From Schmidtea nova (lineage: Eukaryota), in NCBI GenBank assembly GCA_044892505.1, contig CM097882.1:380432001-380496000 (forward strand): 64,000 bases of DNA, in the 5' to 3' direction. The notes below the pieces were generated by a model. That model searched no databases, was not told where the DNA came from, and worked only from the letters and a program-made list of their open reading frames with translations. Below are positions 24,655 to 51,480 of this stretch, piece by piece (the first letter of the stretch is position 1; every line of letters starts with the position of its first letter). The position numbers and the translations under genes are program-made.

Positions 24655-24838
24655 TCTATAATTTATTTAGGATATTTACTTTATGATTAAATTATGTGAA
24701 AAATGAAAATCTGATTATAGGGTTATTAGGTTACGAATACGAACTATTAAAAACACAAAACAAAACTCAAAACAACAAAATAAAAACACCACTGAACATT
24801 AATATTTGAACACAATTTAAACATTTGTCAATCAGTTT

Positions 24839-26661: not shown

Positions 26662-26862
26662 TTATTTTCTTATTGTTTTGTGTTTTTGCTCTTTTATTGT
26701 GTTTTTGGGTGATTTGGCGGGCCCAACTTGGGTTTGTCTTTCCAATTCCTCCTGTTTTCGGTAATAGGCATGAATCCATATCCCAATCCGCTCCATGTGA
26801 TTTCTGATCATTTCGTCTTGATGTACGGTTACTTCTTGTAAGGTTACTTCTATATTTCCCAT
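26662..26862 (-). CDS. 66-aa ORF crossing the internal/3' LTR boundary
   Basis: Element-sense strand; TAG-AA-ATG start context shared with other accessory ORFs. Confidence 0.4.
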   Translation of the reverse strand: MGNIEVTLQEVTVHQDEMIRNHMERIGIWIHAYYRKQEELERQTQVGPAKSPKNTIKEQKHKTIRK

Positions 26863-28348: not shown

Positions 28349-28440
28349 TTTCTACAATAATATATACATTCGACCTGTCATTTATTTTTGGTTTTTCTTG
28401 TTTTTATTTTTACATATTTACAATTTTCCGCTTTATTTAT

Positions 28441-31900: not shown

Positions 31901-32015
31901 TTGTGGCAACTCTTGCTTCGGGCCTCTTTATTGTAATTCGTATAGTTGGTGTTGTTTGCTTATCTATTGCCTGGGGTTTTTGTTTTCTGTTCCCTGTGTC
32001 TCTGTTCTTCCACAT
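28923..32015 (-). CDS. 1030-aa membrane protein with six FN3-like repeats and several hydrophobic segments
   Basis: Repeated about 90-aa unit (I.I...[IV]CW...I.I..L....Y.[IV]C...C..[YF].T); TM-like LIGLGILTATIPVIIAL and VIGLISIGILIAYGIM; continues a unit that starts at the end of pol. Confidence 0.75.
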   Translation of the reverse strand: MWKNRDTGNRKQKPQAIDKQTTPTIRITIKRPEARVATNETERVSYQMEVLCLALILIIIKRLEEGIEIETMTITEVEDTQNTNIKCWARNDEEIGVNEIRKSRKPTTNKVIKVSEVKADKTYKLCLLEKETNKKGTTKCKTFQPGEVIKFRRRTRKRNKQIKQKVNITLEIKEIEPNVKGVCWRKYEKEVNKRTTPQCQTNTGTTTIQIKGLEGKQTYEICLVKKNDQITINDLECGIYTTSTGTRTKTLTRKNKRRQRNKGKPKYTTTFKNNKQPISQEVTTKPEKKTSATLTLWKIENKTSEICWIIVQKHIRRQSRECRKTNKEIKIEKLQFNSEYEVCAIEKMDALGNQQERCETYYTPANATSKGITRKLEFKELSQTNEQMDAEKIITDPQAKWTPEEVIKEVERKQEEREQLMRKLKGQYGIMFNQSESIQTDENKEIKELIGLGILTATIPVIIALSTIWIRKISPRKSTTQWLNIDNTSHGVEILEVREEPKPTRSKKEAKIAKLGMNNKDKEIKEIKGEEKKYERRTRSLPQSSKWLGLTIILTLINREEATNLQAGIKIVNVQEVEKICWNREDEPIGKDNPLKCIIRKSDQDIVRIEGMDRGIMHRICIIEKEKKSGLPKTVVCQKYETPRLEWYRVKPTKKEIKNTIDQPATQIRNTTDKPGEGERSINNTREGASPQQDVICIALIIAMSKRIDKGIIIEQMAITIRKTSSNKLCWGTYNEPRKEYQVQTSDESQTNKEIEIQEIQMNEEGSICIWERGIQEGIEHCKTFQKGEILKFDEEKLTKTERTLTITGLDQTVKGICWTKHNPEGEEDNLTHRKEIKNKEKVELKKMEVNRTYAICTFTRKGSEKPECGLYQISEKLQQQIEPGNMENRTKENNVKQLINRHWSTQEVMNQVKSQVQKEKRPEAQTQNEIKVNQNKIKATNRGKTVIGLISIGILIAYGIMTTSMIIYWRYRKRNKATAIQWPDIKIMKQRIEIPEEIQKEFQRRTKGKEFWKQIEDEERYEEKTIMMV

Positions 32016-35000: not shown

Positions 35001-38000
35001 GGTTGATACTCTAAATCTATGGGCATGTTGCATTCTCTTCCATACATGAGTTGAAATGGGCTTAGTTTTGTTGCTGCATGTATCGACATTCGGTATGCCA
35101 TTAAACATAATTTTATGTATTCGTCCCAATCAGTTTGATGTCTGCTGACGTAATTTGATAACATTCTGATCAATGTACCATTGAATCGCTCCGTTTGTCC
35201 ATTCGTTTGCGGGTGATATGGTGAAGTTCTCAATTTTGCTATTCTGAAATAGTTTGTCACCTCGTTCAATAACTCACTCATAAAATTAGTTCCTTGGTCT
35301 GTGAGTATTTGTTTTGGAGTTCCGTATCTGCAACATATTTCTTCCACTAGAATTTTTGCTACGGTTTTTGCTTTTTGGTCTTGTATGGCAAATGCTTCCG
35401 GGAATTTCGTCAGATAATCCGTTATTACCAATATATAAATATTTCCGTTTAAACTTTCTGGTAATGGTCCTATTAAGTCCATTGCTATAGTTGTCATTGG
35501 CTCTGCTGGTATCGGCATTGGTTGTAGCGGGTTCTTCCATTTCTTCCCACTATCCTTTCTGGTTGCGCAAGTTAGACAATTTTTAATCCATTCCTTTATA
35601 TCTTCTTCCATTGTTCGCCAATAATATTTTTGTCTCATACGATTTATTGTCTTTTTCTCGGACATATGACCTCCTAATTTCCCATCATGGTATTGGATCA
35701 TTATCTCTTTCCTTCTGTTTTCCGGTAAGCACATCAATCTCTTTTCCCCGTCTTGTATTAACAACCATCCTTTATTTATTATGTAGCGATGTTGATATTT
35801 TCCTATATGTTCCTTTAATTCCTTATTATCCTTGAATACCTCCATATTTCGAGACGTTAGGAACTCTATGATCTGTCCCAATTCTTTGTCTTCCTGTTGA
35901 TCTTTCTTTAACTCACTAAAATCTAAATCCTCCGCTATTAATACACAAATTCGTTGTACATCAGGATCGGTTAGTTCTGGAAATGTCAGTCTTGACATAC
36001 AGTCTGCATTCGCATTCGCTCTTCCTGATTTAAATTTTATGTCTGGTGAGTACTCCTGTAACTGCATTGCCCATCGCATTAATCTACTGGATGTTTCCTT
36101 GTGCTGTCCTAACCATACAAGCGGTTGGTGATCTGTTGTTATGCAGATGATGTGTCCCCATAATAAATTTTTAAAGTGTTTAATAGCTAATATAATCGCT
36201 AGTGCTTCCCGTTCTGTCACTGAGTAATTTTTCTCATGCTTTTTGAATGTTCGACTATAATATCCGATTACCCGTTCTTTTCCTTCGTCGTCGTATTGTC
36301 CTAATACGGCTCCTGCTGCATATCCGCTTGCATCTGTTGCAAGTAGGAATGGCTTCTTGAAGTCTGGGTGTACCAATATGGGTGCGGTTATCAGTTTATC
36401 TCTCAATGTTTCAAAGGCTGTTTGCTGTTCGTCTCCCCATATGAATGATACGTCTTTCTTTACTAGCTCCTGTATAGGCTTTGCGATTCCGGCGTAATCT
36501 TTTATAAACTTTCTATAATATCCACATAGTCCGAGAAATTCTTGTATTTGGGTTATTGTTTTTGGTACTGGGCATTCTTTTACCTTGTCGATATTTCTAG
36601 GATCCGGTTCTTTTCCTTTTGCTGACACTATATGTCCTAAAAATGTAACCTTTTCTTTTGCCCAATCGCATTTTGATGGCTTGAGTTTTAACTTCCATTG
36701 TCTAAGCCTAACGAATACATCTCGAATATCCTGTATGTGTTGTTCGAATGTACTAGAGTAAATCAATAAGTCGTCGATGTAGACCATGCACTGCTTTATT
36801 CCGTGGGTGACGAAATTCATGCATCTCTGGAATGATGCTGGTGCGTTTGTTAGTCCAAATGGCATCTTTCGAAATTGATATAGGTCTCTACCGATGGTAA
36901 AGGCAGTTTTCTCTTTATCTTCTTCTTTCATTTTTATTTGCCAATATCCGCTTTTCAGATCTAACGACGTAAAATATGCTGCTCCTTGTAGTGTTAGTAG
37001 CATTTCGTTGATGTCTGGTAATGGGTAAGTATCTCGTTTGGTCACTGTATTCAACCTTCGATAGTCGATGCAGAATCTCTGTGTTCCGTCTTTCTTCTTT
37101 ACCATTACCACTGGGAATTGCCAGGGTGAACAACTGGGTTCAATTACTTCTGCATCTAACATTTTCTTCACTTCTGCTTCCGCTACTGCTTTCTGTGCTT
37201 CCGCTAATTTGTACGGCCTTAATGCAATTGGTGTTTCATCTGTTAATGGTATTGTATGTAGTGTGACATCACATGTTCCTAGATCCAAATCGGATGCTGC
37301 AAATATGTCCTTATACTCCATCAGCAGTTTTTCTAACTGTTTCTTTTGGTCCTCATTTAATAATTCACTATCAATATTCCAGGTTGGTTCTTTATCTTTC
37401 TCTGCCCCTTCTATTGGCAGTTCGATATCCATCATTGGGGTTAGTTTGCCTAATCTTTCGTTTTCGTAGATTATTTTGTCCTCTTCGTCGAAGTTTACTA
37501 TGTTTATTGGGATTTCTCCATTGTCATTTATGTTGACTAGTCCTCTTGCCATTGGCAACGCTTTTCTTTTCTCGAATCTTTTACTTGGTTCGAAAATCAT
37601 ATCGCCTTGGATTGTCGGATCTATTTTTACGTAACATATTTTCTCCTTTCTTGCGGGTATTATCATTTGCTTTGAACTTGTCACTTTAGCTTCTATTGCG
37701 CATATTTGTCCTGTGCGATCCTTTAGTCTCATTGTTCCGAGATCTATTACAATCTCTTTAAATAATGCTGGCATCAAATCTGTTCCGATAATGCAAGGTA
37801 CGCTTAATGCTGGTATAACTGCTACGTACGTATCGATTTCCGTGTTTAAGTGGCGTATTTTTACCCACCATCTTCCTGCTACTTCTACAACTTCTTTGCT
37901 ACATGCAATTACATGGACGTTTGTCCTTTCTATTTCCCGTCTTTGCTCTTGTGGTATCCATTTGATGTCGATGGCGGAAATGTTTGCTCCAGTGTCGATC

Positions 38001-41000
38001 ATTGCTTCGATTTCTCTTCCGTTAATCTCTATTGTCGTGGTTAATACTGGACCTGTGTTTGATGACATCACTGCGATCGTGTGTGTATCTCCTTGTGGAT
38101 CCACACTTCTACATCTTCTCATTTTATAATCTTCTGGTATCATGGGGTATACATTTGTCATTGGCATCATTTGCATCGTGCTATTTTTTCCTCCTTGTAG
38201 TGGTTCTTGATACATTGTTGGTGGGGGTGCGTAACATTTCCATGCGTCGGCTGGATTTTTTTCGATGTATTGTGGTGCTTGGTTCTTATACACTTGTCCT
38301 CCCTTATAGTCGTCATCGTCATCGTCGTCGTCACTCGAATCATTTTGGGTTTTATATCCTTTCATCCTCTCCCATAAACCTTTTCTTTCTCTCTTGAGCT
38401 GTTGTCTTGCTTGTTCGTCATTCATTATCTTTTTAAATTTTCGTCCCACTTCTTCATCTGTTCCCTTCATTTTTGCTAATATCTTTAGGAGTCTTTTTAT
38501 TCGGTGGATATCTTTTGAGTGACCGTGTAACACCATTGTTTTCGCAAGGAATGGTAAAAACCCTACTACCATTTTCCAATTCACTTTCTTTTCTCTCTTG
38601 TAAATATCGAAACACGCTAACATTTGCGTTATTATCACTCTGACGATTTGTATTATTAATATAACCCCCAGTATTCCAGCCATCATTTGTCCGAATATCA
38701 GGAATCTTCCCCACATTGCTTTCATCATATTTTCTGTGGCTTTCTTGAAATGTGCTGGTGACAACAACAGTTCATAATTCGGTCCTTCTCGATAATCCGT
38801 TCCTCCCGTTATCGTTACGATATTTGACAGTAATGCTTCTCTTCTTGCCGGGAATAATATATTCTGCCTTGCTGCTTCTAAATCCTTTGGACTATATATT
38901 CCGTTGTTTGAGACATCTACGTCGCTGAATTGCCTATCCTTTGACAACTGCATTAGCTCGAATTCTCTTGGTGCTATCACTTCGGATCTTCCTGGGAACA
39001 TAACCCATTTACCATCTGGTTTTTGATAAAGCGGTCCGTACGCATTACTACAGTTGAATGGATTTGGTTCAAACCCTGGTGGGTTGATGATTCTCGTCAC
39101 CGGTTGAACGTATCGTACTTTTCCTTTGTAATCGATTTCTAACTCATTTGTACAGGTTCCAGGTTTCAACTGTGTTGTTGCTGCTAGCGACGCGTGTGTC
39201 TTTTCGCAAATGTATACGTACATTGCTTCTCCAACCACTCTTCCGAAATGTCCTTCTCTCAGTGGTAATAATGGCATCGCGCTATCTGGATTCGTAATCG
39301 CTACGGCCAACTTTGTCTTTAATATTTCTCGATTCAGTATACAATCATTATTTATCAGATCGTAATACACTTTTTGTAATGAGGCTTGTCCTCTATGGAA
39401 TAGGAAATCCATTTTATTATTCACATATAGGTGTAGTTTGATATCTATTGTGTCGATTTTGGGTTTCGCATTTGGCACTTCTTGTTTTGACACATATATT
39501 CCTGGGTAATTCGTTTCGTATACCGTTGTACTACACTTAAGGGTTGCTTTCCCTTTTATGAACCTCATTCCCACATCCTGATTTGTGGTTATCAACACTG
39601 TTGGTGTGGCTCTCATCTCTATTCGTTTTTCTCTATGATCTGGTTTCAGTTGTCTTTTATTCTCTAAAGCTTCCTTGAGATGCTTTGCTCTAGCTTTGTC
39701 GTCCTCGTCTTCTTCCTGGAACGTTTTTCCTTGAATTTCGTCGAACTGTGCTCCTTGTAGTAGTTGTAATTGACATTCGTTCACCTTTGGTTTGTATACT
39801 AATGTTGACATTCCCGTTTGACACATGCTCCTGTCGATTTTACACATGGATAACGTTTTCATTTCTCCCGTTGTTGGTTCGAAGAATGCTTCATAGCTTT
39901 TCAATTCGACTATGTACGTATCCATCACTACTAAGTTGGTTGCGGGTACTCCGAATATCGGGTAGGTTTCTCCTTGACAATATCCTTCTCCTCCCGTAAT
40001 CCGTCCTGCTACATAGTAGGTTTGTTGCAGCATCATCCCTGGCTTTCCTCTTATCTTGATTTTATCCCTTGTTGTTACTTCTCCGTGTTTAAACAGTGCT
40101 TCGCAGTCCTCTCCTTGTAACACGATTGGTTCTCTTTCCGTTCCTGGCATGACAATTGCTGAATAATGTCCTCTCCCGCAGTAGAATGCGAATCTCGTTT
40201 TCTGCACCTTACATTCATTCACCATTGTCTTTATGAGTTCTGCTTCTTGATACACGTGGTACCATTGTTCTTTTTTAATCTTTTGCAACTCTACTGGAGT
40301 TGCATCTTTGCATTGCTCCGTACCCCTCAATGAATACTTTTCTCCTAACTTCATTTGGTCGCAATCAAACACTTCGAATGCCGTTGCGCTATCGGTGCTA
40401 ATCATCCATATCAACATCATCATTATTATAGAACTCAGATTCATTGATGACTTTGCGTTTCCTGTTCCTGTTTGTTCCTTTTCTAACTCTTCCAATATTT
40501 TTTCGAATTTCTTTTTCATATTCTTGGCTTGCGTTTTCTTCTGGTTAGTTTTTATAAATGTTTCCCATCCTCCTTTGTTAATGACGTAGGGTTCTATTTC
40601 TCTAGCTATAATCTTTGCGGTATTTTTTATATGTCTTTCTAATGCGGTGGGTTTTGGTCTACCTCTACTCAGTGTCAACAGATTGTAGATCGTGTATGCA
40701 ATGGCTATTACATATTTGTTATCAGTTTCCGCTCCTTCTGTCAATTTCTTTATTAACGTAGTGGTTCCTTGCCAGTCTAAATGATTTGACTTCGTCTTTT
40801 CTTTTATGAATTCTGGTAGGATGGGTGCAATTGCGCTGTGTAATGACTTCGCCTTTTCGCTTATCTCAGTTATACGCCAGTATTTTCTCAATTCCGGATC
40901 AATTATTGCCAATATTTCCATTATTGTTTTCGATATCCATTCCTCCCCTTGACATATTGGTGTTGTTTCTTTTTCTTTTATCTCCGCGATCTTAATTAAT

Positions 41001-41428
41001 TTCTTTAAACATAATTCCCATTGATCTTGTCTCTTTTCATCCTTATTTCTGATGACTACATTCGCTGGATCTGTCTTGGGTCTACCTCGAGGTCGCCTAT
41101 CCATTCCTGTACCTGTTTCCACAAACCTTGTTGCCCGTCCTGTTTCTTCCGTGACATCTCTTGGTTCGTTAGCTCTTTCTTCTAACCATCTTTCCATTTC
41201 CTGTGTTAATTGTGCATTTTCGACATTCGCTCCTCTCGTTTCGTCTTCTGTTAGATCGTTTACTTCTTCTATTATTATTTCTTCTTCGACTTCTGCTTCT
41301 CCGGTGTTGGTTACTTGTATTGTCGTAGGTAATTCTTGTATCCTTTCGAAAATATTATCGTCTTTTTCCTTTGTTAATTCGGTTAATTCTTCTATCATAT
41401 CGTCACTGTCTGTCAATATTTCGTCCAC
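31964..41428 (-). CDS. pol: 3154-aa polyprotein: Bcl-2-like, signal peptide, envelope glycoprotein, TM, PR, RT, RNase H, IN, ankyrin repeats, acidic linker, FN3-like unit
   Basis: MIDTGA (about 37990), YIDD (about 36775), ATDASG (about 36330), HH-CC plus MDLIGP/TDQG/TERFN, GRGPY (about 34760); uninterrupted frame. Confidence 0.95.
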   Translation of the reverse strand: MDEILTDSDDMIEELTELTKEKDDNIFERIQELPTTIQVTNTGEAEVEEEIIIEEVNDLTEDETRGANVENAQLTQEMERWLEERANEPRDVTEETGRATRFVETGTGMDRRPRGRPKTDPANVVIRNKDEKRQDQWELCLKKLIKIAEIKEKETTPICQGEEWISKTIMEILAIIDPELRKYWRITEISEKAKSLHSAIAPILPEFIKEKTKSNHLDWQGTTTLIKKLTEGAETDNKYVIAIAYTIYNLLTLSRGRPKPTALERHIKNTAKIIAREIEPYVINKGGWETFIKTNQKKTQAKNMKKKFEKILEELEKEQTGTGNAKSSMNLSSIIMMMLIWMISTDSATAFEVFDCDQMKLGEKYSLRGTEQCKDATPVELQKIKKEQWYHVYQEAELIKTMVNECKVQKTRFAFYCGRGHYSAIVMPGTEREPIVLQGEDCEALFKHGEVTTRDKIKIRGKPGMMLQQTYYVAGRITGGEGYCQGETYPIFGVPATNLVVMDTYIVELKSYEAFFEPTTGEMKTLSMCKIDRSMCQTGMSTLVYKPKVNECQLQLLQGAQFDEIQGKTFQEEDEDDKARAKHLKEALENKRQLKPDHREKRIEMRATPTVLITTNQDVGMRFIKGKATLKCSTTVYETNYPGIYVSKQEVPNAKPKIDTIDIKLHLYVNNKMDFLFHRGQASLQKVYYDLINNDCILNREILKTKLAVAITNPDSAMPLLPLREGHFGRVVGEAMYVYICEKTHASLAATTQLKPGTCTNELEIDYKGKVRYVQPVTRIINPPGFEPNPFNCSNAYGPLYQKPDGKWVMFPGRSEVIAPREFELMQLSKDRQFSDVDVSNNGIYSPKDLEAARQNILFPARREALLSNIVTITGGTDYREGPNYELLLSPAHFKKATENMMKAMWGRFLIFGQMMAGILGVILIIQIVRVIITQMLACFDIYKREKKVNWKMVVGFLPFLAKTMVLHGHSKDIHRIKRLLKILAKMKGTDEEVGRKFKKIMNDEQARQQLKRERKGLWERMKGYKTQNDSSDDDDDDDDYKGGQVYKNQAPQYIEKNPADAWKCYAPPPTMYQEPLQGGKNSTMQMMPMTNVYPMIPEDYKMRRCRSVDPQGDTHTIAVMSSNTGPVLTTTIEINGREIEAMIDTGANISAIDIKWIPQEQRREIERTNVHVIACSKEVVEVAGRWWVKIRHLNTEIDTYVAVIPALSVPCIIGTDLMPALFKEIVIDLGTMRLKDRTGQICAIEAKVTSSKQMIIPARKEKICYVKIDPTIQGDMIFEPSKRFEKRKALPMARGLVNINDNGEIPINIVNFDEEDKIIYENERLGKLTPMMDIELPIEGAEKDKEPTWNIDSELLNEDQKKQLEKLLMEYKDIFAASDLDLGTCDVTLHTIPLTDETPIALRPYKLAEAQKAVAEAEVKKMLDAEVIEPSCSPWQFPVVMVKKKDGTQRFCIDYRRLNTVTKRDTYPLPDINEMLLTLQGAAYFTSLDLKSGYWQIKMKEEDKEKTAFTIGRDLYQFRKMPFGLTNAPASFQRCMNFVTHGIKQCMVYIDDLLIYSSTFEQHIQDIRDVFVRLRQWKLKLKPSKCDWAKEKVTFLGHIVSAKGKEPDPRNIDKVKECPVPKTITQIQEFLGLCGYYRKFIKDYAGIAKPIQELVKKDVSFIWGDEQQTAFETLRDKLITAPILVHPDFKKPFLLATDASGYAAGAVLGQYDDEGKERVIGYYSRTFKKHEKNYSVTEREALAIILAIKHFKNLLWGHIICITTDHQPLVWLGQHKETSSRLMRWAMQLQEYSPDIKFKSGRANANADCMSRLTFPELTDPDVQRICVLIAEDLDFSELKKDQQEDKELGQIIEFLTSRNMEVFKDNKELKEHIGKYQHRYIINKGWLLIQDGEKRLMCLPENRRKEIMIQYHDGKLGGHMSEKKTINRMRQKYYWRTMEEDIKEWIKNCLTCATRKDSGKKWKNPLQPMPIPAEPMTTIAMDLIGPLPESLNGNIYILVITDYLTKFPEAFAIQDQKAKTVAKILVEEICCRYGTPKQILTDQGTNFMSELLNEVTNYFRIAKLRTSPYHPQTNGQTERFNGTLIRMLSNYVSRHQTDWDEYIKLCLMAYRMSIHAATKLSPFQLMYGRECNMPIDLEYQPPLSQYMEDDDYVTKFKERMQEIWKTAELNIKFYQESYKDLHDQKKNVKANNLKPGDWVIIETPEIIPGTVKKLQRPGRGPYEIIYKKDNNVKVKLINRPLIRPIYVNTCRCKKVPKTITTTPENRIITRSQTARINMLRANATEDDKAEIRQKEIRNKEIILKAREIMGRWHVKDEVGISRDIRHIISRYAQGLPTEPIISELLIKIPEILLLKDVGGQPALHNAIECKNIERAKEFLKIAKETNQNLDVGNREQETPLMTAAIHQADKEMIDLLIKAHFSWTERDREDKTVLNHVIWSSHQPMLKYIIANSTWEIDELVKGDIIKEAIKIGKCNTIRKLIKWKRPEDDTWVLDINEVYSEGQNALLRYLLKFTCDQKTLLTLLDRGNINITKNEEEHQFDKEKNALFNKIRKWCAKPLDKLITYKDINNFNEKYQTIVSEYEELVKILNHPEKCKQVLEKKERESNKKLTPLFKAEAPYQARLDAIQEKAKELLPEFENSKHALEILGALVEKVHAYAKGTYNGNDITTIKKEMPVTFLLPKDGIMPIHRALRSGKDRKVMEIARVMLNCGSNMNMIDEKGDTLMVFAARAKTKTKVLEELYKAGAGLTGKTDKDNSILDVALLTHNWEMVNFIKTISNQEEIDYLTDTVRKPSVLTMMHNVELTEAILTWINPNTNEPAFRINKFTEHNQNWCIRSALITYKWPEILKMFMERKDLRITTSPKEEKYTGKWKELMKTYINNWIKAKKEIWEYKSTNKVIPEQVETQEFEASNLTTLAYAKLIEEINVEDDIFDEPGGDDNTDSDDGNNSEKSNDHEPPDKEEHEGKDKKRDKEEKKNEDEKQKDEDGEQGKNDQGDKNDTQRTGYKSTIKPFFKPELLLFTVILTLINPSQGMTCEERAIIQIKNAKGIERVCWSKKDKITEQNSPMDCRISEHEQEIIEINDLDLNTWYKICTVRKQKHPRSHNTIACAKYQTPKAAMTIQQSPKGDYILGKCGRTETQGTENKNPRQ
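33110..34370 (-). other. Two ankyrin-repeat clusters C-terminal to integrase (domain of pol)
   Basis: GQPALHNAI, QETPLMTAA, DKTVLNHVI; GIMPIHRAL, GDTLMVFAA, DNSILDVAL at ankyrin-like spacing. Confidence 0.85.
38620..40445 (-). other. env: Chuvirus-like (class III, gB-related) envelope glycoprotein (domain of pol)
   Basis: Signal SSIIMMMLIWMISTDSATA; FDC; ECKVQKTRFAFYCGRGH; CTNELEI..KG..YVQPVTRII; NGIYSPKDL..ARQNILFP.RR; TM WGRFLIFGQMMAGILGVILII. Confidence 0.82.
40550..40950 (-). other. Bcl-2-like domain (domain of pol)
   Basis: BH2-like YVINKGGWETFI; BH1-position LDWQGTTTLI; helical character. Confidence 0.6.
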
Positions 41429-41452
41429 GTCGTATGGTTGTGGTGGAGTCCT

Positions 41453-44400
41453 TTATTTGGTTTCTCTGGGTGTTGTCTCAGATCGTCTCGAACTTGTCCC
41501 TGGCGTTGGTACTGATTTCATCGGGCTCGGCGTACTTATACTTCCGTGTGGTTTATGGTTTTCTTCTTTACGTTTTAATGGTTGACCCGCTATTGCTTCT
41601 ACTGTCAAGGTATTCATGAGGTCTAGTTGTGCTGGCGTTATTCCAATTTCTAAACTGTTATCTAATGATCGTCCTTGGTGTTGTAGATGGAATGGTGGTT
41701 CGTATCTCAATTTCTTTTTGATATCTCGAATTTTTTCTGCTATTCCTACCCACAATTCCTCCTTATCCTTGTTTGGGTATATTATTCTTAAATGTACTTT
41801 CTGTGGAATTTCCTGCGAGAATTCTTGGTTTCTCCATTTCCTAATTACGTGGTCTAGTTGTTCCGGGCACCACTCGTTAACTCTTTTATATTCCGCGATT
41901 GCTTTTGCTACTTTACGTAAACATGTTATATCTTCTCCATTAACCACGAAAAAATCTGCGAGACCTTTTATTAATTTTCTCTTACCGTGCGCATTAGTTT
42001 TCAATATTTCGACAAATTCTTCCGTTTTTTGCTTTTCCCTTTCTAACCACATGGCCGCTGTTTCTGGTCCATCTAGGTCTATTGGCGTAGCTTTCCTTGT
42101 TACCATGCAAACTCTTCCTATCTCTGGTTCGCAGTCATCTTCTATTCCTCTTTTATATTCTTCTTCATATTCCCCTTCTTTTGGTTCCCAACATTTTCCT
42201 TTCTCGTTCCATTGTTTTTCTACGGGTGTTCGTATTCGTCTGTTGAGATTGAGTTCTTCTAATACATTTTCCCACTCTGGCCAAATTCGCCAATTTCGAT
42301 AAATTTCTACTATTTGTTGTAATTTGCGCACGACTTCTTTCCGTCGTTCCCGTTCTCTTTTCTCATCTTTAGCAGTTTCCCTTGGTGTATCGTCCATTCT
42401 GCTAACGTGGATTGTTTGGTGATTATCCCATATACCGATTTTATATAATCGTCTCTCATCGTGATCCCATAATACATGTTCGTTGTATTGTATGATTATG
42501 TCGTCTTCCCATTCGTCTTCTGGTTCTCTTTGCACTAGTGTCTCGTTAATGACATTTATTAATTCTTTAATGGTGCAATCCGCTACCACTTCAATTTCTT
42601 TGGTGTCCTCATTAGGTAATTCTACTGAAATTTTTAGATCTGTTATTTTCCCTTGTCTAAACATTGTTTTTCCCATTTTTGCGATTAATTTGTCGTGTGA
42701 GATCTGTGACCATCTCGTGTGGCTTGTGTCACGTATGCACTCAATGCATCGTTTCAATTTCTCGTATTCGCTTCTCATTAACTCTTTTCTATGTTTTTTG
42801 ACTTGTGGTATGATTTGTTCTATCAGGGAATTTAGATTCTTTCGTAAGACTCGTTCTTTCTCGTATTCTAACCGAGGTTTTATTCTCCTTTCGAAGCACG
42901 TGTTTGCCTCCCTTGCAACTTCTTGTAGGTTCTCTTCTTCCTTTTCATCGCATATTGATAATAGGGTTATTTCTCCTGGCCATATACCTGTTTCTACTAA
43001 GTGCGTTCTTTTCTTTACGAGTCTATTCTGCGAATAGATGAATTTGTTTTTGTATGAGCTCCCTAGTCTATCCTCTACCCATCTGTAGATATCGTCTGTA
43101 AATGGAGTTTTAATCCAGATTCTTGGTGTAGATGTGTTTATTATTATTGAGATGGTGTAATTGAGGAGTGGTTCCTCTATTAATTTCCCTACGTATCGAT
43201 TTAACATGTCTACTTCCCGGTCTTGTAACCATTCTTTGTAGTTCATTTGTAATAATGCTTTCATGAATTTCCGATATTGTTTCTTGTCCATGAACTCTTC
43301 GTTATATATTACTTCTAGCGAGTTATCTAGTAATTTCTGGATTTCGTCTACTTTCATCTGTGTAGGTTCTGAGGTCTTTATTACTTCTCTCTCTTTATTT
43401 TCGTCTTCGGATTCATTTAATATGTCTCCTGCTAGGCTACTGATATCACTATCTTCTTCTTCATCGGAGAACTCTCTGGTGGTATTTCTTAGCATATTAA
43501 TATGTGCTGTTTGGTTCGTTTCCCCTTGTGTATTCTCCGTTGGTTTTGTTTTGTTTTTGCTGATTTCTGGTGTTAGTTCATTTTTGTCCTCCATTAATTC
43601 GACTTTTCCCATTTTCTTTCCCAACTCGTCTATTTCTTTTAAACGTCTTCTTATCATTTTTCCTTCAAATATTCGCCTGATTCGGGTTTCGTGACGTATT
43701 GGTGGTGGAATTTCTTCTGGTTCTATTTCTTTAATAATCATCACGTTTCTTTTTGTTTCTACTACTCCCAAGTTTTCCCATATGTCCGTTAATTCCAACT
43801 TTACTTTTGGCGCACCTTCTATTTGTAAGAACGCTTCTCTGGGCAGTTTCGTTACTCCCGGAACCATCTGGTTTACTTTGTTGAATAATATTCCCACTTC
43901 TTCTTTTACGTTATACTGGAATCTAAACACGGATTTGCTGGGCATGATTACCATCATTCCTCTTTTCCAACTCTCTTTCCTCTCTTCCTGGTTTATCTCA
44001 GTTTCCACTTCCTTTTTTATTTCTTTTTCTACTTCCTCATCTTTTTGTGTTATTTCTTTTCGACTTTCGTTGTCGGTTGGATTCGGGTTTATCGAATTTA
44101 TTTCCGGTGTGGTTTCTTTCTCGTAGTTATCTGTTTGCTTTGTTGCTCTTAGCATGTTAATTCTTAGAGGTTGTCGTTCTCTTTCTTGTTGTTTTTGTTC
44201 ATCCTCTCTTTGTATTCTTGCCCATTCCTGAGCGTGTCGTGCCTGACTTTCTCGATTTAATCGTTCGTTTTCGCTTTCTATCTTTCTCATCATGCTAATT
44301 TGTTGTGGATTGATTTGCGGATTTCCTCTCGCCGTGTTGTTTATCAGTTCCGTCAGCCTTTGAACTTCTTGCATCAAATGAATTTCTTTGGTGGTAGTTT

Positions 44401-45952
44401 TGTTCTGATTATTGTTATTGTTGTTTTGTTGGTTTCCATAATCTGGTCGGTTTACGGTATTTACTTGATTTCCGTAATTTGGTCGGTTCCCATTGCTCTG
44501 CCAGTTTCCTCGCTGATTACTTTTTTGTCCGCAATTTCTTGAATAGTGACCAGGTCGTCCGCAATTAAAACAGATTATTGTAGAACATCTGCTTTCCGAG
44601 TGTCCTTTAACTCCACATTTTCCGCAATTCGAATTTTGATAGCATTCTTGCTGCCAGTGTCCCAACTTCCCGCATGTTTTACATTGTTTTGTTTGTCTTT
44701 GAGGGTTGTAATTGTTTTGGTTTTCAAAGTTCTGCACTTTATTTCCTTCATTTCTTCGTTGAGGGGGTGGTCGGTTTAATTGTTGCGAATTTGGAATGTG
44801 ATTGTTGAGATTTACCTCTGGTTCGGTTTGCGCTGTGTCCATGGCTAAGTAAATTCTGCCCTCACTTCCTATCATGTGTAATTCGAATCGGTTAGCTGTT
44901 TCTAACGCTTGATCAATGGTCTTGCATCCTTGGCATCCAACTTGCGCTCTTATGTCAGGTCTTCTTAATCCTCCTATGAAGATGGCTGCCATTAACTCCT
45001 CGTTTATTGGACCTCCATCCTTGAATACTGATTTTGCTAATTTTTTCAGTTCGCTCGCGTATACCGCGTTAGATTCATTCATCTTTTGTTTCCTCATTGA
45101 AAATTCTATGAATGCCTCGCTTAGCACTTTATTTATTCCAAATGTTTGTTGGAAAAAATCCTTTATCGCTGTCCAGCTTGTAGGTGGATTGGTACCATTT
45201 TTCGCTTCCAAATATAGGTCCAATGCACTATCTTTCAAATATAACTGAATTCTGCTTACTGTTGTTTCCGCTTTCCACTTGCATACTTCTACGAATATGC
45301 CAAATTCTTTTAAAAAGGTTTCTAATTTACTCGCATCTCCGTTAAACGGTTCTCCTGAAAATTTATCCTTTATTTCTTCTCTTGGTTCACCCATTTCAAT
45401 TCCGCTGTCTTGAGTTATTTTACTTTCGTTTCCCCTTGTTTCTAGTTTGTTGTTATGTTCGTCTTCTGTTTCACTCGAGCTTGAATCGCTTTCTGTTTCT
45501 CTTATTACTTCGTTATCTGATATTATACTTTCGTTATCACTCTCGTTGATTTCTACCTCTGGTTCTACCTCGTTTTCTACTTCTCCGATATTATCGTTGT
45601 TAGTTTCGTCGGTTTCTCCTTCTTGTTCTATCTCGTGTTCTATTTCTTCGATATTCTCGTTGTTAGTTTCGTCGCTTTCTATTTCACTTGCTTGGTTCTC
45701 CTTGGATTCGGCTTGGTTTTCTTTGTTACTTGAGCTGTTGCTTACTATTGACAATTTATCGTTTTCGATAATCGATTTATCTCTTATTATTTTCCTCGCT
45801 TTACTCCCTTGTGGGTTCTTGTTGTTATCCTTGCCGGCTTTCTGCTTTTTTGTTGATTTTGTTGTAGTACTAGTTTTGTCTTTTTTGTTAATATTGCTGC
45901 CGACTTTCTTTTCCGTTGGCTTTATTACGACACTCTTTGCTCCTTTTCTCAA
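41453..45952 (-). CDS. gag: 1499-aa extended Gag: charged N-terminus, capsid, three CCHC knuckles, about 1000-aa extension with ubiquitin-like repeats
   Basis: FNGDASKLETFL...W...LYLKDSALDLY; CKTCGKLGHWQQEC, CGKCGVKGHSESRC, CFNCGRPGHYSRNC (about 44530-44685); first ATG at 45394. Confidence 0.9.
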   Translation of the reverse strand: MRKGAKSVVIKPTEKKVGSNINKKDKTSTTTKSTKKQKAGKDNNKNPQGSKARKIIRDKSIIENDKLSIVSNSSSNKENQAESKENQASEIESDETNNENIEEIEHEIEQEGETDETNNDNIGEVENEVEPEVEINESDNESIISDNEVIRETESDSSSSETEDEHNNKLETRGNESKITQDSGIEMGEPREEIKDKFSGEPFNGDASKLETFLKEFGIFVEVCKWKAETTVSRIQLYLKDSALDLYLEAKNGTNPPTSWTAIKDFFQQTFGINKVLSEAFIEFSMRKQKMNESNAVYASELKKLAKSVFKDGGPINEELMAAIFIGGLRRPDIRAQVGCQGCKTIDQALETANRFELHMIGSEGRIYLAMDTAQTEPEVNLNNHIPNSQQLNRPPPQRRNEGNKVQNFENQNNYNPQRQTKQCKTCGKLGHWQQECYQNSNCGKCGVKGHSESRCSTIICFNCGRPGHYSRNCGQKSNQRGNWQSNGNRPNYGNQVNTVNRPDYGNQQNNNNNNQNKTTTKEIHLMQEVQRLTELINNTARGNPQINPQQISMMRKIESENERLNRESQARHAQEWARIQREDEQKQQERERQPLRINMLRATKQTDNYEKETTPEINSINPNPTDNESRKEITQKDEEVEKEIKKEVETEINQEERKESWKRGMMVIMPSKSVFRFQYNVKEEVGILFNKVNQMVPGVTKLPREAFLQIEGAPKVKLELTDIWENLGVVETKRNVMIIKEIEPEEIPPPIRHETRIRRIFEGKMIRRRLKEIDELGKKMGKVELMEDKNELTPEISKNKTKPTENTQGETNQTAHINMLRNTTREFSDEEEDSDISSLAGDILNESEDENKEREVIKTSEPTQMKVDEIQKLLDNSLEVIYNEEFMDKKQYRKFMKALLQMNYKEWLQDREVDMLNRYVGKLIEEPLLNYTISIIINTSTPRIWIKTPFTDDIYRWVEDRLGSSYKNKFIYSQNRLVKKRTHLVETGIWPGEITLLSICDEKEEENLQEVAREANTCFERRIKPRLEYEKERVLRKNLNSLIEQIIPQVKKHRKELMRSEYEKLKRCIECIRDTSHTRWSQISHDKLIAKMGKTMFRQGKITDLKISVELPNEDTKEIEVVADCTIKELINVINETLVQREPEDEWEDDIIIQYNEHVLWDHDERRLYKIGIWDNHQTIHVSRMDDTPRETAKDEKRERERRKEVVRKLQQIVEIYRNWRIWPEWENVLEELNLNRRIRTPVEKQWNEKGKCWEPKEGEYEEEYKRGIEDDCEPEIGRVCMVTRKATPIDLDGPETAAMWLEREKQKTEEFVEILKTNAHGKRKLIKGLADFFVVNGEDITCLRKVAKAIAEYKRVNEWCPEQLDHVIRKWRNQEFSQEIPQKVHLRIIYPNKDKEELWVGIAEKIRDIKKKLRYEPPFHLQHQGRSLDNSLEIGITPAQLDLMNTLTVEAIAGQPLKRKEENHKPHGSISTPSPMKSVPTPGTSSRRSETTPRETK

Positions 45953-46564
45953 CGGGATTACTTTTGTATACTCAATTTTCCTGTCCTATCTCTTATCGTT
46001 TTCTGATTCTTCTTGCTTGATTGATTGATTTGATTGATTTGTATGTCTAAAATACAAAGGTCCTCAACGATACATTATTGTTATCGTCGCGCTTTTATTC
46101 CCTTTCTTTCGGGATTACTTATTACCGGGTTTTCATTATTTCCCAATTCCCAGATTCCCCTTTATTTTTAGTCTATTTAAATTATCTATAGACTGGTCAC
46201 AATTATCTATTTATGTCGTAATAATTATCTATGTTTTATCAAATCAATTACTTTTCCCACAGTTTCCCAATTGTTTTGGTCGCTCGAGCGCTCTAATTCC
46301 CTGAGTCTTTCTGACTCGTTTATCATTATTTTATCATCTCTATTCATTGTTCCCTGCTAGCAATCGTTTTACTCATTCTGCCGGTTGCTCCGGTCAGCTC
46401 AAATCTCCACTATTCTCCTTGCATGCTTTACTTAAGGTTGCATAATCAGCTTTACTCGCATTCTCTTAACTACTGGTGCGCACTACTCTAAATCTCGTCG
46501 ACGATTACACTATGGGTCTATATTCCCCCTGTTACTATTTATCCGGATATCTCTATAATTCACT

Positions 46565-46821
46565 ATGGCTCTTTTGGCCTCAATTTTATATCTCCCATGG
46601 CTCTATTGGCCTCAATTTAATCTCTTACATGGCTCTATTGGCCTCAATTTAATCTCTTACATGGCTCTATTGGCCTCAATTTAATCTCTCAAATGGCTCT
46701 CTTGGCCTCAATTTAATCTCTCAAACGGCTCTATTGGCCTCAATTTTAATCTCTCAAATGGCTCTATTGGCCTCAATTTAATCTCTCAAATGGCTCTATT
46801 GGCCTCAATTTAATATCTCCA
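46565..46821. repeat. Tandem array, 8 x 32 bp
   Basis: ATGGCTCTATTGGCCTCAATTTAATCTCTCAA-like units start at 46565, 46597, 46629, 46661, 46693, 46725, 46758, 46790. Confidence 0.95.
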
Positions 46822-46861
46822 TAACGCCTAGCTAGGTCATTCAATAAGGCTCGTTGGCCTC

Positions 46862-47037
46862 AACCCTTTTTTTCAAGGGACAAACCGCTAATAACCCTTT
46901 GTTTCAAGGGACAAATCTCCTAACCCTTTGTTTCAAGGGACAAATCTCCTAACCCTTTGTTTCAAGGGACAAATCTCCTAACCCTTTGTTTCAAGGGACA
47001 AATCTCATAACCCTTTGTTTCAAGGGACAAATCTCCT
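46862..47037. repeat. Tandem array, 6 x 29 bp
   Basis: AACCCTTTGTTTCAAGGGACAAATCTCCT units start at 46862, 46893, 46922, 46951, 46980, 47009. Confidence 0.95.
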
Positions 47038-47516
47038 AATTTTACTTAACCGGTTAATCACAATTCCCTACTTCGCTAGCGATTAATACTTCTCAGCTGA
47101 GTTATAACTACTTCTATGCGAGCTGACTATGCACCTTTTATTCTTTCAAAAATTGTCATTTATCTCTTTATTCTATCATAACTAATTCCTGATCAGTCTG
47201 CTTCAACTTTTTATTTATTTTTCTTATGCGCGCTTTACTCCATCAAGATTTCCCTATCTCTCTCCCCAACCAAAATATACAAAAAGATCGCGTTGGTCCA
47301 TTAATGCAGGATGTGGTGATCAATCACATCACAAAAACTTTTCAACATTTGCGATGGGCCCCTTTCTATACACCTTGAATAAGTTGATCAATCGGTACCT
47401 CCCAATGGATTCTTATCGGACTACTTTGTAGTAGCTCAAAAATTATTTAAATACAACGATTGTACCCATGATTTCATCATTAATAAACCAATAAAACTCC
47501 ACTTAAACATTATTTA

Positions 47517-47978
47517 TTATAAATATACAATAATTTTATCATCAATCATCAGGTTGCACATAGGACATAGGTCGCGCTTGCTGGCACATATTTTACAAAA
47601 ACGAAAATGTCCGCAAGGTAAAAACATAATTTGTATCTCCCTATCCTCACATATATAGCACTGTCGGTATTTTTTCGCTGCTTCTACCCCTTGCGCCCTC
47701 CATCGATTGTATGTTGAGGTTAATCGTTGTTCTATTTGCCTGCACTTAAGGTTTAATTCTGCATTTTCTAATCGTGCTCTGTACCATTTGTAGCGGGTCT
47801 CTATGTCGATTTTTCTTGTTCTTTCCGTTATCTTTATTAATTCATCCGTTTCCTCGGTCTGTGTTGTGGGTTCCTGAAATTCAATCTCTCTAAATCGGTT
47901 TATCTTCTTGCCAATCGTTCCTAATGTTTCGCTTTCTGTGTTGAGGAATTCTTCGATTTCTTTCAGTTTTTCCTCCAT
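47517..47978 (-). CDS. 153-aa protein with a C-terminal IAP-type RING finger, no BIR
   Basis: CYICEDREIQIMFLPCGHFRFCKICASKRDLCPMC...IIVYL-stop. Confidence 0.85.
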   Translation of the reverse strand: MEEKLKEIEEFLNTESETLGTIGKKINRFREIEFQEPTTQTEETDELIKITERTRKIDIETRYKWYRARLENAELNLKCRQIEQRLTSTYNRWRAQGVEAAKKYRQCYICEDREIQIMFLPCGHFRFCKICASKRDLCPMCNLMIDDKIIVYL

Positions 47979-48283
47979 TTACTGAATAAATAATTGTTTT
48001 TAACTTTGTTATTTTTATCATTTCTAAAGTAGTAATATGTTTCGCTTTGTATCTTTTGATATTTATCAATCCTCCCCGTGTTTCCGACAATTGTCGTCCC
48101 GACAAATTATCTATGCATGCATTTAATTTTTAACTTCACTTTTGTTCACTGCCATGTTGTTATTTTAATTTTTATACAATAATTTAATTATAACCTTTCT
48201 GTTTTTTATTAAATTAATTGACACGAGCATTTTAAACTTCTCTGCAGATTTTACATTTACATTTTTCCGATAAAACGAAGTTG

Positions 48284-48301
48284 ATCCCGACTGAGCCCCC
48301 A
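48284..48301 (-). promoter_or_regulatory. Primer binding site, tRNA-Pro-like
   Basis: Minus-strand TGGGGGCTCAGTCGGGAT, 6 nt after the LTR CA; 15/18 match to the MLV-type Pro PBS TGGGGGCTCGTCCGGGAT. Confidence 0.8.
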
Positions 48302-48763
48302 AATTTATGCTGGGTTCATGGAGGGGTTAGATGAAAAATGCTCTAACAATGACTAGGGATCCCTCATCCATGATCATGCATAAAATTGCAATTTTACACT
48401 CAAGCGCCCTTGATTAGTCCCCTATATAATCAAGTTGGTGATGCGCAGGGTGGTTAAACAATGATGGGCAGGTGAGCACTATCGCTAGTACTACTCCCCA
48501 TTTATGTTTACGGGTCCATTGCTGCCGTTAGAAGGACTTATGCTTTAATTATTTGCTTAGGTATTCCGCAAACATCTTTTTAGAAAACTTTATGTTTAAC
48601 ATTGCGTATTCTGCGAGAAGTGTTCAAATCGAAATGCTCGCCTAATTATTTGTTATCTTGTGATATGATTTTATACTTTTATACTCCATTTATCTAATTA
48701 TTTGTCAAGTTACAGAATCCATTTAAAAGAACAATAACAATTAAATTATCCCGAAAATTTTAT

Positions 48764-49360
48764 TTAAGTTTTAATTAATTCCGTAAAAACTCCAGCCGGA
48801 GGAAAAATCTCCGTCAATAATTCTTCTTCGGTCATCCGATGTAGACCATCTACTTGACTCTGTAATCGCTGAGCGAATAATTTCCTCTGTCTTCGCCGTT
48901 TCTGCCCAATGCGCTTGCGTTTCTGGTGCGCATTTGCCGTAGAGGTGGTTGAATTTGCTGCAGGAGCCGTCTCATTCCGACTTTCGATTAGATCGGCGAC
49001 ATCCGTACCAATGGAATTTACAGTCTTCTTTTCTGATGTCCAAGCTTGATACGTAACCGGACGGATTTGCTCTCTGAGCTCTTTCTCAATATATGAGGCA
49101 GTTACGGAATGGAGGCATTTTCGGAGTTCTATCTTCGTAGCCTCCCATTCCATTTGGTAATCGGCTGCAGTCTGCTGGGCGCGTTCGGTTTTACTGATTT
49201 GCTCTTTCATCCTGGCCGGAGCAAACCAGCTTTTGCGCAAGTATGCAATCTGTGCCTCGGCTTTGATCAATTGTGCCTTGAGGAGACCCAATTCCTTGTC
49301 CTGGGCTCTCCGGATCCGCCACATCTTTTCCAATTCTCTCTGTATCAAATCGGTGGTCAT
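48764..49360 (-). CDS. LTR-ORF B, 198 aa, coiled coil with a basic patch
   Basis: Intact; KRKRIGQKRRRQRKLF; minus-strand AATAAA next to the stop. Confidence 0.6.
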   Translation of the reverse strand: MTTDLIQRELEKMWRIRRAQDKELGLLKAQLIKAEAQIAYLRKSWFAPARMKEQISKTERAQQTAADYQMEWEATKIELRKCLHSVTASYIEKELREQIRPVTYQAWTSEKKTVNSIGTDVADLIESRNETAPAANSTTSTANAHQKRKRIGQKRRRQRKLFAQRLQSQVDGLHRMTEEELLTEIFPPAGVFTELIKT

Positions 49361-49544
49361 TCTATAATTTATTTAGGATATTTACTTTATGATTAAATTA
49401 TGTGAAAAATGAAAATCTGATTATAGGGTTATTAGGTTACGAATACGAACTATTAAAAACACAAAACAAAACTCAAAACAACAAAATAAAAACACCACTG
49501 AACATTAATATTTGAACACAATTTAAACATTTGTCAATCAGTTT

Positions 49545-50024
49545 TTATCTCCGAAACAAGCTATGTAATTCGCTGTTAATCGGCCTCCGACGAAGACGAG
49601 TCCAAGAGAATGAGGGTTGTCCTTTCTGGCACTCCTTGCCGAACGGTTTTCGTGGTAGAAATTCGTGTAGGCCTAGTTGACACAGTTCCCGACGAGGGAT
49701 GTGCCCCCAATAAATTATACGGCTTGTCCGTCCCTCGGTGTTTTTGACCAATACGATCAATCGGCCAAACTTATTCGAGTACGGCCTTTGGGAAATCGGC
49801 CAGTTCGGTCCTCCTCGATAGGGTATTTGGTCGTTCCCTCCTGTCCATATCAAGAACGGGCATTTTCGGCCAAACCCATGTCGCCACTTATACATCTGGC
49901 AGTTGAGGGTTCGCAACACCGGTGCCGGTAGATCCTTGAGCTGCGAGATCTTTCCATTCTGGGTATCCCCTTGTTCCACATTCCGTAGTTGAGTTAATTG
50001 ATTCATAAATTCGGCTGTCGACAT
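49545..50024 (-). CDS. LTR-ORF A, 159 aa, unknown
   Basis: Intact in both LTRs; TAG-ATG start context. Confidence 0.55.
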   Translation of the reverse strand: MSTAEFMNQLTQLRNVEQGDTQNGKISQLKDLPAPVLRTLNCQMYKWRHGFGRKCPFLIWTGGNDQIPYRGGPNWPISQRPYSNKFGRLIVLVKNTEGRTSRIIYWGHIPRRELCQLGLHEFLPRKPFGKECQKGQPSFSWTRLRRRPINSELHSLFRR

Positions 50025-51480
50025 CTATATTACATTCATTGGATATAAAATATATGAGTTAACGGAGGGAATTTGTTGATAAATCATTTATACTGCATAT
50101 AATCACAAAAGTTACTTAAAAATAAGATTAATTTTATTTCTCTCCGCCGTGATCTACCACGGTAGGAATAAAGAGTTCATAATTAGTTCTGTGCTATATA
50201 CAGCATTCAGGAATATAGAATTTAATACAGATTTCCGCGCTATATACAGCGATCGGACTATAACTTGGGAACCGCGCCATATACGACGATCGGCCTATTT
50301 TTAGTAACTAATTTAATTTGGATTTTCCGACGCATTCCAACGCGATCGGAATTTATCGATATTAAAATTTTGTAGGCGAGATGCTGATTCCGAATGAAAT
50401 CGGACTTTGGACTGCGTTGGATTTTCTCATTTCAGCGAAATTATTCAAATTTATTTTATTTGTTGCTCACTGTTTTTCCATGCGGGAGGTTCCATTTCGA
50501 TTCAATTGACTAAAAATTTAAATGATGAGCATGCCATACCATGGGGTGTCACTCCTTATCAATCCGCCCCCCCCGCATTCTCCCTATTTGGCCCTCGACT
50601 CTCGTCCGTTGTGCAACCCAGAATTAAATAATTAGTAAATGGTCTGTACTAGATTAAAAATTCAATCAAATTTTCTAAATAAAATTCTACATCTAACTAA
50701 ATATTAAAAAGGTTGAACCGCCATGTGAGACCGTGAGGCCCCACAACGACGACTCGGACTCCCTCGCCGCGTGAGCAGCATAGGAAGTATAGCTATATGC
50801 ATTAAAATGTCAATATCAAAAATAAAATAACGTTTACATATAAAATTTTTAATTGAACAAAAATCATGGGTACATCATATAAAACAAAATAAAGAAATTA
50901 CTTCCGTACTTGAATGTGTGGTTCCTTGTATGAAATTCTGTTTTTTTCAAAAAATCTCGTTGGGTTCAATGAAATATTACTTAAATCAAAGTTTAGTCTT
51001 GATTGTAAGTTAAAAGTAAAACGTCTGTTGTTGTGATTTTTGGATCGGTATTTATACTGATCCGTCTGGTTGGATTGACCAATCAGGATCAGGCCGTCCA
51101 TCAAAGTATTTTTATTATTTTATTCTAATCTAAACATTATTTTGTTTCCTTTTCCGGTTTCTCGCTGGGTGGTCCTGATTTTCCAAGTAATTAATTAATT
51201 ATTTGCACTATTATTTTATTTAATTCTATCTTTTCTTATTTCAGGCCCCCTTTTGCTGTTGTTTACCGGTTTATTTTCAAAATTTCCTTTTACTGAAAAT
51301 TTATCAAATATTATTTGTCGTTTTATTGTTATTTTTAATTTGTTTTTCTTGTTATTTTTATGTTTATTATTTTCTTATTGTTTTGTGTTTTTGCTCTTTT
51401 ATTGTGTTTTTGGGTGATTTGGCGGGCCCAACACATATATTGATTCATACAATTATTACACAATACCAATTAATTAATTA

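Follow-up and report, generated by a model that had tools for sequence, protein, structure and literature searches.

Repeated helical-bundle and ubiquitin-like modules in the giant polyprotein of a Burro-type retrotransposon of Schmidtea nova

What are the small domains that follow Gag in a large retrotransposon of Schmidtea nova, and what might they do for the element that encodes them? The question arises from a stretch of 64,000 nucleotides (the window; GenBank assembly GCA_044892505.1, contig CM097882.1, forward-strand positions 380,432,001 to 380,496,000). In this window an earlier note, made from the sequence alone, had recognized a Gag extension with up to four ubiquitin-like domains (Ubls) alternating with helical segments, and had proposed that these Ubls serve as decoys or adaptors together with the RING proteins of the element. 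All four segments (U1 to U4), including the peptide quoted as the clearest (IIQYNEHVL), lie in one open reading frame (ORF), P0001 (Table 1). The ORF is part of a Burro-type gypsy LTR element, which is 27.8 kb long, occupies the minus strand, and is bounded by 3.1-kb LTRs with a 4-bp CATA, read by eye, at each outer flank.

Table 1. Features of the element, in window coordinates (aa, residue of P0001)
Feature	Position	Strand	Evidence or remark
5' LTR	48308-51433	-	99.3% identity to 3' LTR
Upstream accessory ORF: coiled coil and C3HC4 RING (IAP-type by eye)	47517-47978	-	
ORF P0001, 1,510 aa, carrying all four segments	41453-45985	-	
Gag capsid and three CCHC knuckles	44528-45373	-	Pfam zf-CCHC; tblastn to sister Gags; Retrotrans_gag in sisters
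Putative protease site, aa 562, upstream of U1	44288-44302	-	Motif scan
Putative protease site, aa 608, upstream of U1	44150-44164	-	Motif scan
U1, possible fourth Ubl, aa 682-751; no helical bundle recognized before it	43727-43960	-	
Putative protease site, aa 828, between U1 and H2-U2	43490-43504	-	Motif scan; kept in G, P0008
H2, bundle before U2, three helices	43175-43366	-	Low-confidence model, pLDDT 37-62
U2, predicted Ubl, aa 941-1011	42941-43165	-	AlphaFold2, VIA, leave-out HMM
Long linker helix and H3 bundle before U3	42656-42928	-	AlphaFold2; pN/pS 0.13-0.18
U3, predicted Ubl with acidic loop (net charge -14), aa 1114-1196	42389-42652	-	AlphaFold2, VIA, HMM
Helix after U3	42284-42373	-	AlphaFold2 model
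Putative protease site, aa 1291, between U2/U3 product and H4-U4	42101-42115	-	Kept in G, P0008
H4, four-helix bundle before U4	41819-42058	-	AlphaFold2, pLDDT 73-88
U4, predicted Ubl (lower confidence), aa 1396-1464	41591-41800	-	AlphaFold2, HMM, module comparison
In-frame stop breaking the window copy between U4 and Bcl-2-like domain	41453-41455	-	
Rest of polyprotein: Monjiviricetes-type fusion glycoprotein, protease, RT, RNase H, integrase, ankyrin repeats	31964-41452	-	Pfam (P0002)
AT-hook-like RPRGRP motif	41072-41098	-	Also in families G, D and P0009
Bcl-2-like domain (approximate limits)	40553-41005	-	Aligned sister regions and GGW motif
Second break of the window copy, a frame change	Near 31964-32066	-	
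Accessory ORF downstream of polyprotein, full TRAF: RING, zinc fingers, coiled coil, MATH	26993-28351	-	Pfam
3' LTR	23616-26728	-	LTR pair and flank reading

The description of the region as a Gag extension reflects the state of this one copy, in which an in-frame stop closes P0001 just after U4. A search of the same genome with U3 yielded 815 candidates, and the 150 copies that were scored are all 93-100% identical; open frames of at least 5,640 aa, counted by eye, are present in 32 of these 150. In two other copies that were examined, the frame is open across both breaks of the window copy, and other copies encode one polyprotein of about 5,700 aa in the order Gag, Ubl block, Bcl-2-like, Env, Pol, ankyrin. 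Thus, the Ubl region is the middle of a giant polyprotein and not the tail of Gag. The Bcl-2-like domain is assigned through relatives: aligned sister regions match PF00452 (E 0.0017 and 0.0067), the region of the window copy has no direct Pfam match, and a GGW motif is present in all seven of the element families that have a Bcl-2-like region. The upstream RING ORF is 95% identical in another copy, and a RING-like match is also present upstream in the related family G.

Elements of this class are already known. Burro elements, over 30 kb in size and with long LTRs, rank with the largest known retrotransposons, and planarians have thousands of copies of them (PMC6431247). In Burro/GYPSM1 one huge ORF (4,873 and 5,140 aa) carries env in frame between gag and pol, and a Ubi2/SUMO-like motif (PF11976) lies between MATH and BCL-2; it has been suggested that the elements interfere with host ubiquitination and apoptosis (Arkhipova and Yushenova 2019, PMC6431247). 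As far as the passage on Burro in that paper goes, the window element shares the single-ORF gypsy-type Pol with in-frame env between gag and pol, a Bcl-2-like motif before Env (seen here via the aligned sisters and the GGW motif), MATH/TRAF either in frame or in an accessory ORF, and ankyrin repeats. It differs in its ORF length (about 5,700 aa in the window family versus 4,873 and 5,140 aa), in the full RING-bearing TRAF, which is downstream here and upstream in that paper, and in its slightly shorter overall length, although the class is the same. A BIR domain, which is a Burro feature, was not detected by Pfam in the four large ORFs of the window element. Separately, another high-copy element family of this genome has a BIR domain in a 399-aa ORF, with at least 150 matches (L067/L068, L072/L073).

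The same passage on Burro describes one SUMO-like motif, whereas the present family contains three supported Ubls, each with a helical bundle, and a possible fourth. Since the order in family G is MATH-U4-Bcl-2, U4 occupies the position of the published motif, with U2 and U3 placed before MATH. The class of element and one of the Ubls were thus known before, and the additions made here are the repeat, two Ubls, the possible fourth, a variable copy number, and a putative cleavage map. Multiple Ubls, a bundle plus Ubl repeat, U2/U3, and such a map were not found in the literature searched, although Grohme et al. 2018 and Repbase may describe more; nor did this literature give a match for an LTR retrotransposon polyprotein with a ubiquitin-like domain and Gag. 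About half of the Burro polyprotein was formerly unannotated, and some 600 residues of it now become a defined repeat.

The first step is whether the segments have the fold proposed for them. An AlphaFold2 model of aa 873-1471, built with a 9-row alignment (mean pLDDT 68), contains three beta-grasp patterns. U3, for which only three alignment rows were available, is modeled as a beta-grasp with blocks of pLDDT 79-92 and an acidic loop at 50, and matches the Dsk2 UBL, ISG15, and the plexin RBD (VIA; Z 10.1-10.2, rmsd 2.2-2.4 Å). The U2 model (pLDDT 74-85) has SUMOs as its best structural rows (Z 10.0, rmsd 1.9-2.2 Å), tied with other Ubls; the beta-grasp matches of U2 and U3 span 71-84 residues. 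U4 shows the same order of strands and helix with less certainty (pLDDT 48-70), and its structural match occurs only inside a tri-ubiquitin row (Z 9.4, model range 71-593). Because sister modules, aligned with MAFFT, were included, the U2 and U4 models lean on the alignment. For the whole model Foldseek ranks ISG15, di- and tetra-ubiquitin, and FAT10 highest, and the viral rows of the structure search are ubiquitin-family proteins. One BAG1 row that spans U2 and the helices following it (Z 9.8) was rejected; at an rmsd of 13.4 Å it is not a rigid match. The beta-grasp folds that the earlier note had anticipated are therefore predicted for U2 and U3 and, at lower confidence, for U4.

Relationships among the segments are not apparent by simple comparison. 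Neither BLAST nor a first HMM detected significant mutual similarity of U1 to U4; Pfam Ubiquitin_4 matches U3 at E 0.057, and Pfam gave no match for U1, U2, or U4. Two-sequence profiles of U2, U3, and U4 alone retrieved no Ubl below E 0.4, and a direct search of PDB sequences with U3 returned 0 rows. The internal repeat that had been expected does emerge for U2 to U4 with profiles that include relatives. In a leave-family-out HMM, from which each domain and its positional orthologues were removed, U2, U3, and U4 score 9.8, 14.8, and 13.3 bits, values reached by 0 of 497, 0 of 495, and 0 of 507 background windows, respectively (583 overlapping background windows in all). A profile of eight sister modules matches ISG15 and FAT10 at E about 0.01, and a 14-module profile matches ubiquitin variants (E 3e-7), ISG15 (2.5e-6), and NEDD8 (1e-3). 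With hhalign, the U2 and U4 modules match the sister modules (E 1.3e-3 and 1.4e-4); module 3 is not significant against either the sister modules or module 2, and module 1 matched nothing. At the level of sequence profiles, then, both the repeat and its homology to ubiquitin are shown. U1 is less certain: its leave-family-out score of 2.4 bits is reached by 89 of 505 background windows, and a single-sequence AlphaFold2 model of aa 662-1510, the sole model to cover it, was discarded at pLDDT 33. Matches to ubiquitin and Rad60-SLD clusters of the ESM Atlas (0.88-0.89 for U1, 0.89-0.90 for U3) are leads only, and as a ubiquitin-like domain U1 is itself only a lead.

The helical segments had been described as spacers, perhaps with a death-like fold. 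H4 is modeled as four helices of 15-21 residues (counted by DSSP) arranged as two helical hairpins, and H2 and H3 as three or four helices at confidence below that of H4. A death fold has six helices, and a bundle profile aligned over only 8 columns, no better than controls, with ten host death domains (DD, as distinct from CARD and DED); on the model, a death fold is not supported. No TFIIS N-terminal domain (TND), death fold, or other bundle family occurs in the structure lists, which are taken up by Ubls and so say little about the bundles. Nor are these segments mere spacers, given that they are as constrained as the Ubls. Across 48 loci, drawn from 46 copies other than that of the window, pN/pS is 0.27, 0.17, 0.10, and 0.11 for U1 to U4, and 0.18, 0.18, and 0.09 for H2 to H4, compared with 0.45-0.59 for three linkers and 0.35 for the helix and tryptophan-rich stretch after U3; the values are rough because distinct variants were set against one reference rather than counted as tree events and because copies were picked by their U3 match. 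Judged from these variants, bundles and Ubls are under purifying selection. The low values show each bundle to be a folded part, and U1 to be some kind of constrained domain. Just before H2 (about 43390-43470, minus strand), an acidic motif, a candidate short linear or phosphorylation motif, is conserved in A, G, and P0008 within an otherwise variable linker.

Comparison of the window element (family A) with other families found by searches of the same genome, and with the database proteins P0008 and P0009, defines the repeat unit as a helical bundle plus a Ubl, which occurs 1, 2, or 3 times across seven element families. One module is present in D, F, and P0009 (D and F being about 3,000 aa), two in B, C, and E (about 3,400 aa), and three in A and G. 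In B to F and P0009 the units sit between the knuckles and, where present, the Bcl-2-like domain. Family G, with an ORF of about 5,000 aa, has the order H2-U2, H3-U3, helix, MATH, H4, U4, Bcl-2-like, and P0008 agrees with it through MATH and then H4, where P0008 ends. Family G and P0008 thus carry MATH in frame, with U3 before it and H4 after it, and the window family has MATH in a separate TRAF ORF. U1 was found by tblastn only in family-A copies (17 loci), and family G reads differently there. In protein databases, a full HMMER scan returned only P0008 (32% identity) and a profile search only P0009; word-based homolog searches found none, and no host protein with the bundle plus Ubl architecture was found in the searches run. 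An accessory ORF of family B (L032:5087-6538) has DEDD-exonuclease-like motifs by eye and no Pfam match.

Paralogous modules are only 9-15% identical to the U4 module, yet in A, G, and P0008 the U2, U3, and U4 modules each retain their position. In a module tree they group apart from the other families with support of 86/89; since the support is no higher, independent amplification is only suggested. In effect, a repeat has been amplified to differing numbers between lineages and kept under selection. This pattern bears on the possibility that the modules have no host partner at all but stabilize or space their neighbors, or act between Gag and Env as a scaffold for the assembly of particles. 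Integral Ubl domains do occur in some viral polyproteins, such as coronavirus nsp3, and in all families examined the modules are placed after Gag and before Env; they no longer have the surface residues typical of ubiquitin, and the constraint is compatible with maintenance of the fold alone. However, copy number ranges from 1 to 3 or 4, divergent modules that keep their positions suggest distinct partners, and putative cleavage sites would separate the modules from Gag. We consider a purely structural role unlikely.

These sites come from a cleavage-like pattern, [RKHQY][IV][NCS][MAV][LMIV], which was chosen after the sequences had been seen. P0001 contains 4 sites (0.15 expected; aa 562, 608, 828, and 1291) and P0002 contains 3 (0.30 expected; aa 1249, 1834, and 2285), and all of the P0002 sites are at Pol boundaries (one just follows the protease, one separates RNase H from integrase, and one follows integrase). 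Because the pattern is post hoc and families B, C, D, and F have only 0-1 sites, cleavage has to be inferred, and the element protease likely cuts the block into three separate products. Product 1 (aa ~608-828) would carry U1; product 2 (aa ~828-1291) would consist of H2-U2-H3-U3-helix, with MATH added in family G; and product 3 (aa ~1291 onward) would contain H4-U4, the AT-hook-like motif, and the Bcl-2-like domain. If correct, the proposed map resolves the giant ORF into a set of separate proteins that can be expressed, and together with the repeat it allows the published suggestion about ubiquitination and apoptosis to be tested for each domain in turn.

The ends and surfaces of the Ubls limit what they can be. 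A di-glycine is present in 0 of 18 element Ubls versus 1 of 1 control; three of the 18 are clipped before the last strand, and their ends, read separately, have no GG. Among 46 copies, no variant restores GG at the four Ubl ends. In a sequence alignment, the Ile44 column contains Q, Y, Q, and Q in U1 to U4, so the usual surface for proteasome/UBA binding is probably gone. As far as their sequences tell, the element Ubls are integral domains and not conjugatable modifiers, substrates of deubiquitinases (DUBs), or close ubiquitin mimics. Integral UBL domains are known to serve as protein-interaction modules (Rad23/Dsk2, BAG1, Rad60 SLDs). Like the integral UBL/SLD domains of Rad60/Esc2, Dsk2/Rad23, BAG1, OASL, and USP DUSP-UBL, those of the element are embedded beta-grasps, as predicted, with no conjugatable tail (Z 9-10), but they are borne by a retroelement, paired with bundles, have lost Ile44, and are about 8-25% identical.

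This argues against two uses of a ubiquitin fold. Ubls might be processing signals cut by host DUBs, as are the ubiquitin inserts in polyproteins of bovine viral diarrhoea virus, entries of which occur among the viral rows of the structure search; the Ubls are positioned just before polyprotein domain boundaries, and another element family of this genome has a ubiquitin before Gag. That family and the viral inserts also place a ubiquitin fold within a polyprotein, but theirs is a near-canonical ubiquitin with an LRGG end, and the element Ubls are ancient, diverged, and devoid of GG, which no copy variant restores; a processing role is nearly excluded. Decoys, one of the two functions first proposed, would soak up host sensors that bind ubiquitin or SUMO, or DUBs. 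Tandem Ubls do resemble di-ubiquitin and ISG15 in fold, and the element has other host-signaling modules. However, the Ubls share only about 8-25% identity with chains of ubiquitin or SUMO, neither Ile44 nor GG is kept, and about 100 or more helical residues lie between the Ubls, unlike the arrangement in chains. The decoy reading is thus weakened, and we regard it as quite improbable.

The ubiquitin-Gag family is a separate, high-copy LTR family (BEL/Pao-type by eye), in which the ubiquitin is in frame with Gag; examples are L039:5176-9999 and L041:4157-9256, and the family makes up most of the best 150 PF00240 matches in the genome. Before the ubiquitin comes a mosaic of pieces of host genes, which is not the same in the two copies read; we take these pieces to be calmodulin, HECT, Hsp70, and reductase-like. 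As a host DUB could cut such cargo off ubiquitin-Gag, in-frame capture of genes would be harmless. This fusion family is possibly more striking than the Ubl repeat itself.

The other function first proposed, that of adaptors, fits the anatomy of the element: two RING ORFs belong to it, and both family G and P0008 have MATH in frame after U3. We tentatively favor the explanation that the Ubls link the TRAF/MATH, RING, and Bcl-2-like parts to proteins of the host ubiquitin system and so help the expressing cell survive, a reading that we hold as somewhat short of probable. Beta-grasp modules without di-glycine, once freed from the polyprotein, would bridge these parts and the host proteins. Product 2 would be a TRAF-like adaptor in which bundle plus Ubl modules take the place of the RING and zinc fingers of a TRAF, and product 3 would be a Ubl-tagged Bcl-2-like protein. 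The net effect may be a dampening of death or immune signaling in the cell that expresses the element. Domain order, conservation, and the absence of GG and Ile44 are observed and the folds are predicted; from these we infer the adaptor role. The AT-hook-like motif speaks against it, as this points to the nucleus rather than to cytoplasmic signaling.

In a nuclear role, a TND-like bundle, a SUMO-like Ubl, and an AT-hook would tether the integration complex or recruit elongation factors, in the manner of LEDGF. By eye, the bundles recall the TND, a right-handed bundle that binds acidic TND-interacting motifs. The last helices of seven host TNDs line up in register with the bundle profile, which has W/Y/F where a TND carries its tryptophan. 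TNDs are five-helix bundles that have been likened to a pair of HEAT repeats (PMC9987994), and H4 consists of two helical hairpins; judging from the part of that paper on TND proteins and LEDGF/p75, the element similarly has a small two-hairpin bundle near an AT-hook-like motif, but with four helices (DSSP) instead of five. In A, G, D, and P0009 this motif comes after the last Ubl, and the top structural rows of U2 are SUMOs. However, the TND profile score of 14.6 does not exceed controls (the alignment in reverse scored 14.75, and block shuffles scored as high as 18.6), and no TND is among the 21 rows listed in a search of PDB sequences with the bundle profile. The AT-hook-like motif is absent at the corresponding place in B, C, E, and F, the Pfam AT_hook match in family G is weak (E 0.057), and the neighboring modules are of apoptosis and ubiquitin type. 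A complex prediction for an integrase core dimer with H4, run without alignments, gave no answer either way (score 0.00). A nuclear role is, on balance, doubtful. Still less probable is its boldest form, that Burro-type elements encode a LEDGF-like tether of their own, made of a captured TND-like bundle, a SUMO-like domain, and an AT-hook, in three copies released by the protease. If true, integration would be steered or the host elongation machinery co-opted, and a retroelement would bring with it the host cofactor that lentiviruses must hijack. Elsewhere in the genome (C1:216.19-216.25 Mb), about 28 near-identical copies of the TFIIS N domain (PF08711) form a tandem array with a spacing of about 1.2 kb.

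Several other features of the locus were observed. At the end of the polyprotein (the end of P0002 plus P0003; window 28923-33000, minus strand), repeated cysteine-bearing beta domains alternate with hydrophobic segments, and their counterpart in family G matches fn3 (E 3e-4). They look like membrane-anchored, receptor-like ectodomains, which are not named in the passage on Burro (PMC6431247). The leader of the element contains 32-bp and 29-bp tandem repeats (window 46533-46843 and 46863-47068). A primer-binding site beside the 5' LTR (about 48282-48299) resembles tRNA-Pro. Both LTRs contain internal ORFs (48764-49372 and 49545-50024 in the 5' LTR; 24072-24666 and 24839-25318 in the 3' LTR), and a 202-aa LTR ORF is intact in one LTR and split in the other. 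Elsewhere in the window, a second pair of direct repeats (8860-9116 and 15588-15844; 98.4%) surrounds decayed ORFs, and a long inverted-repeat element is present at 20191-21133.
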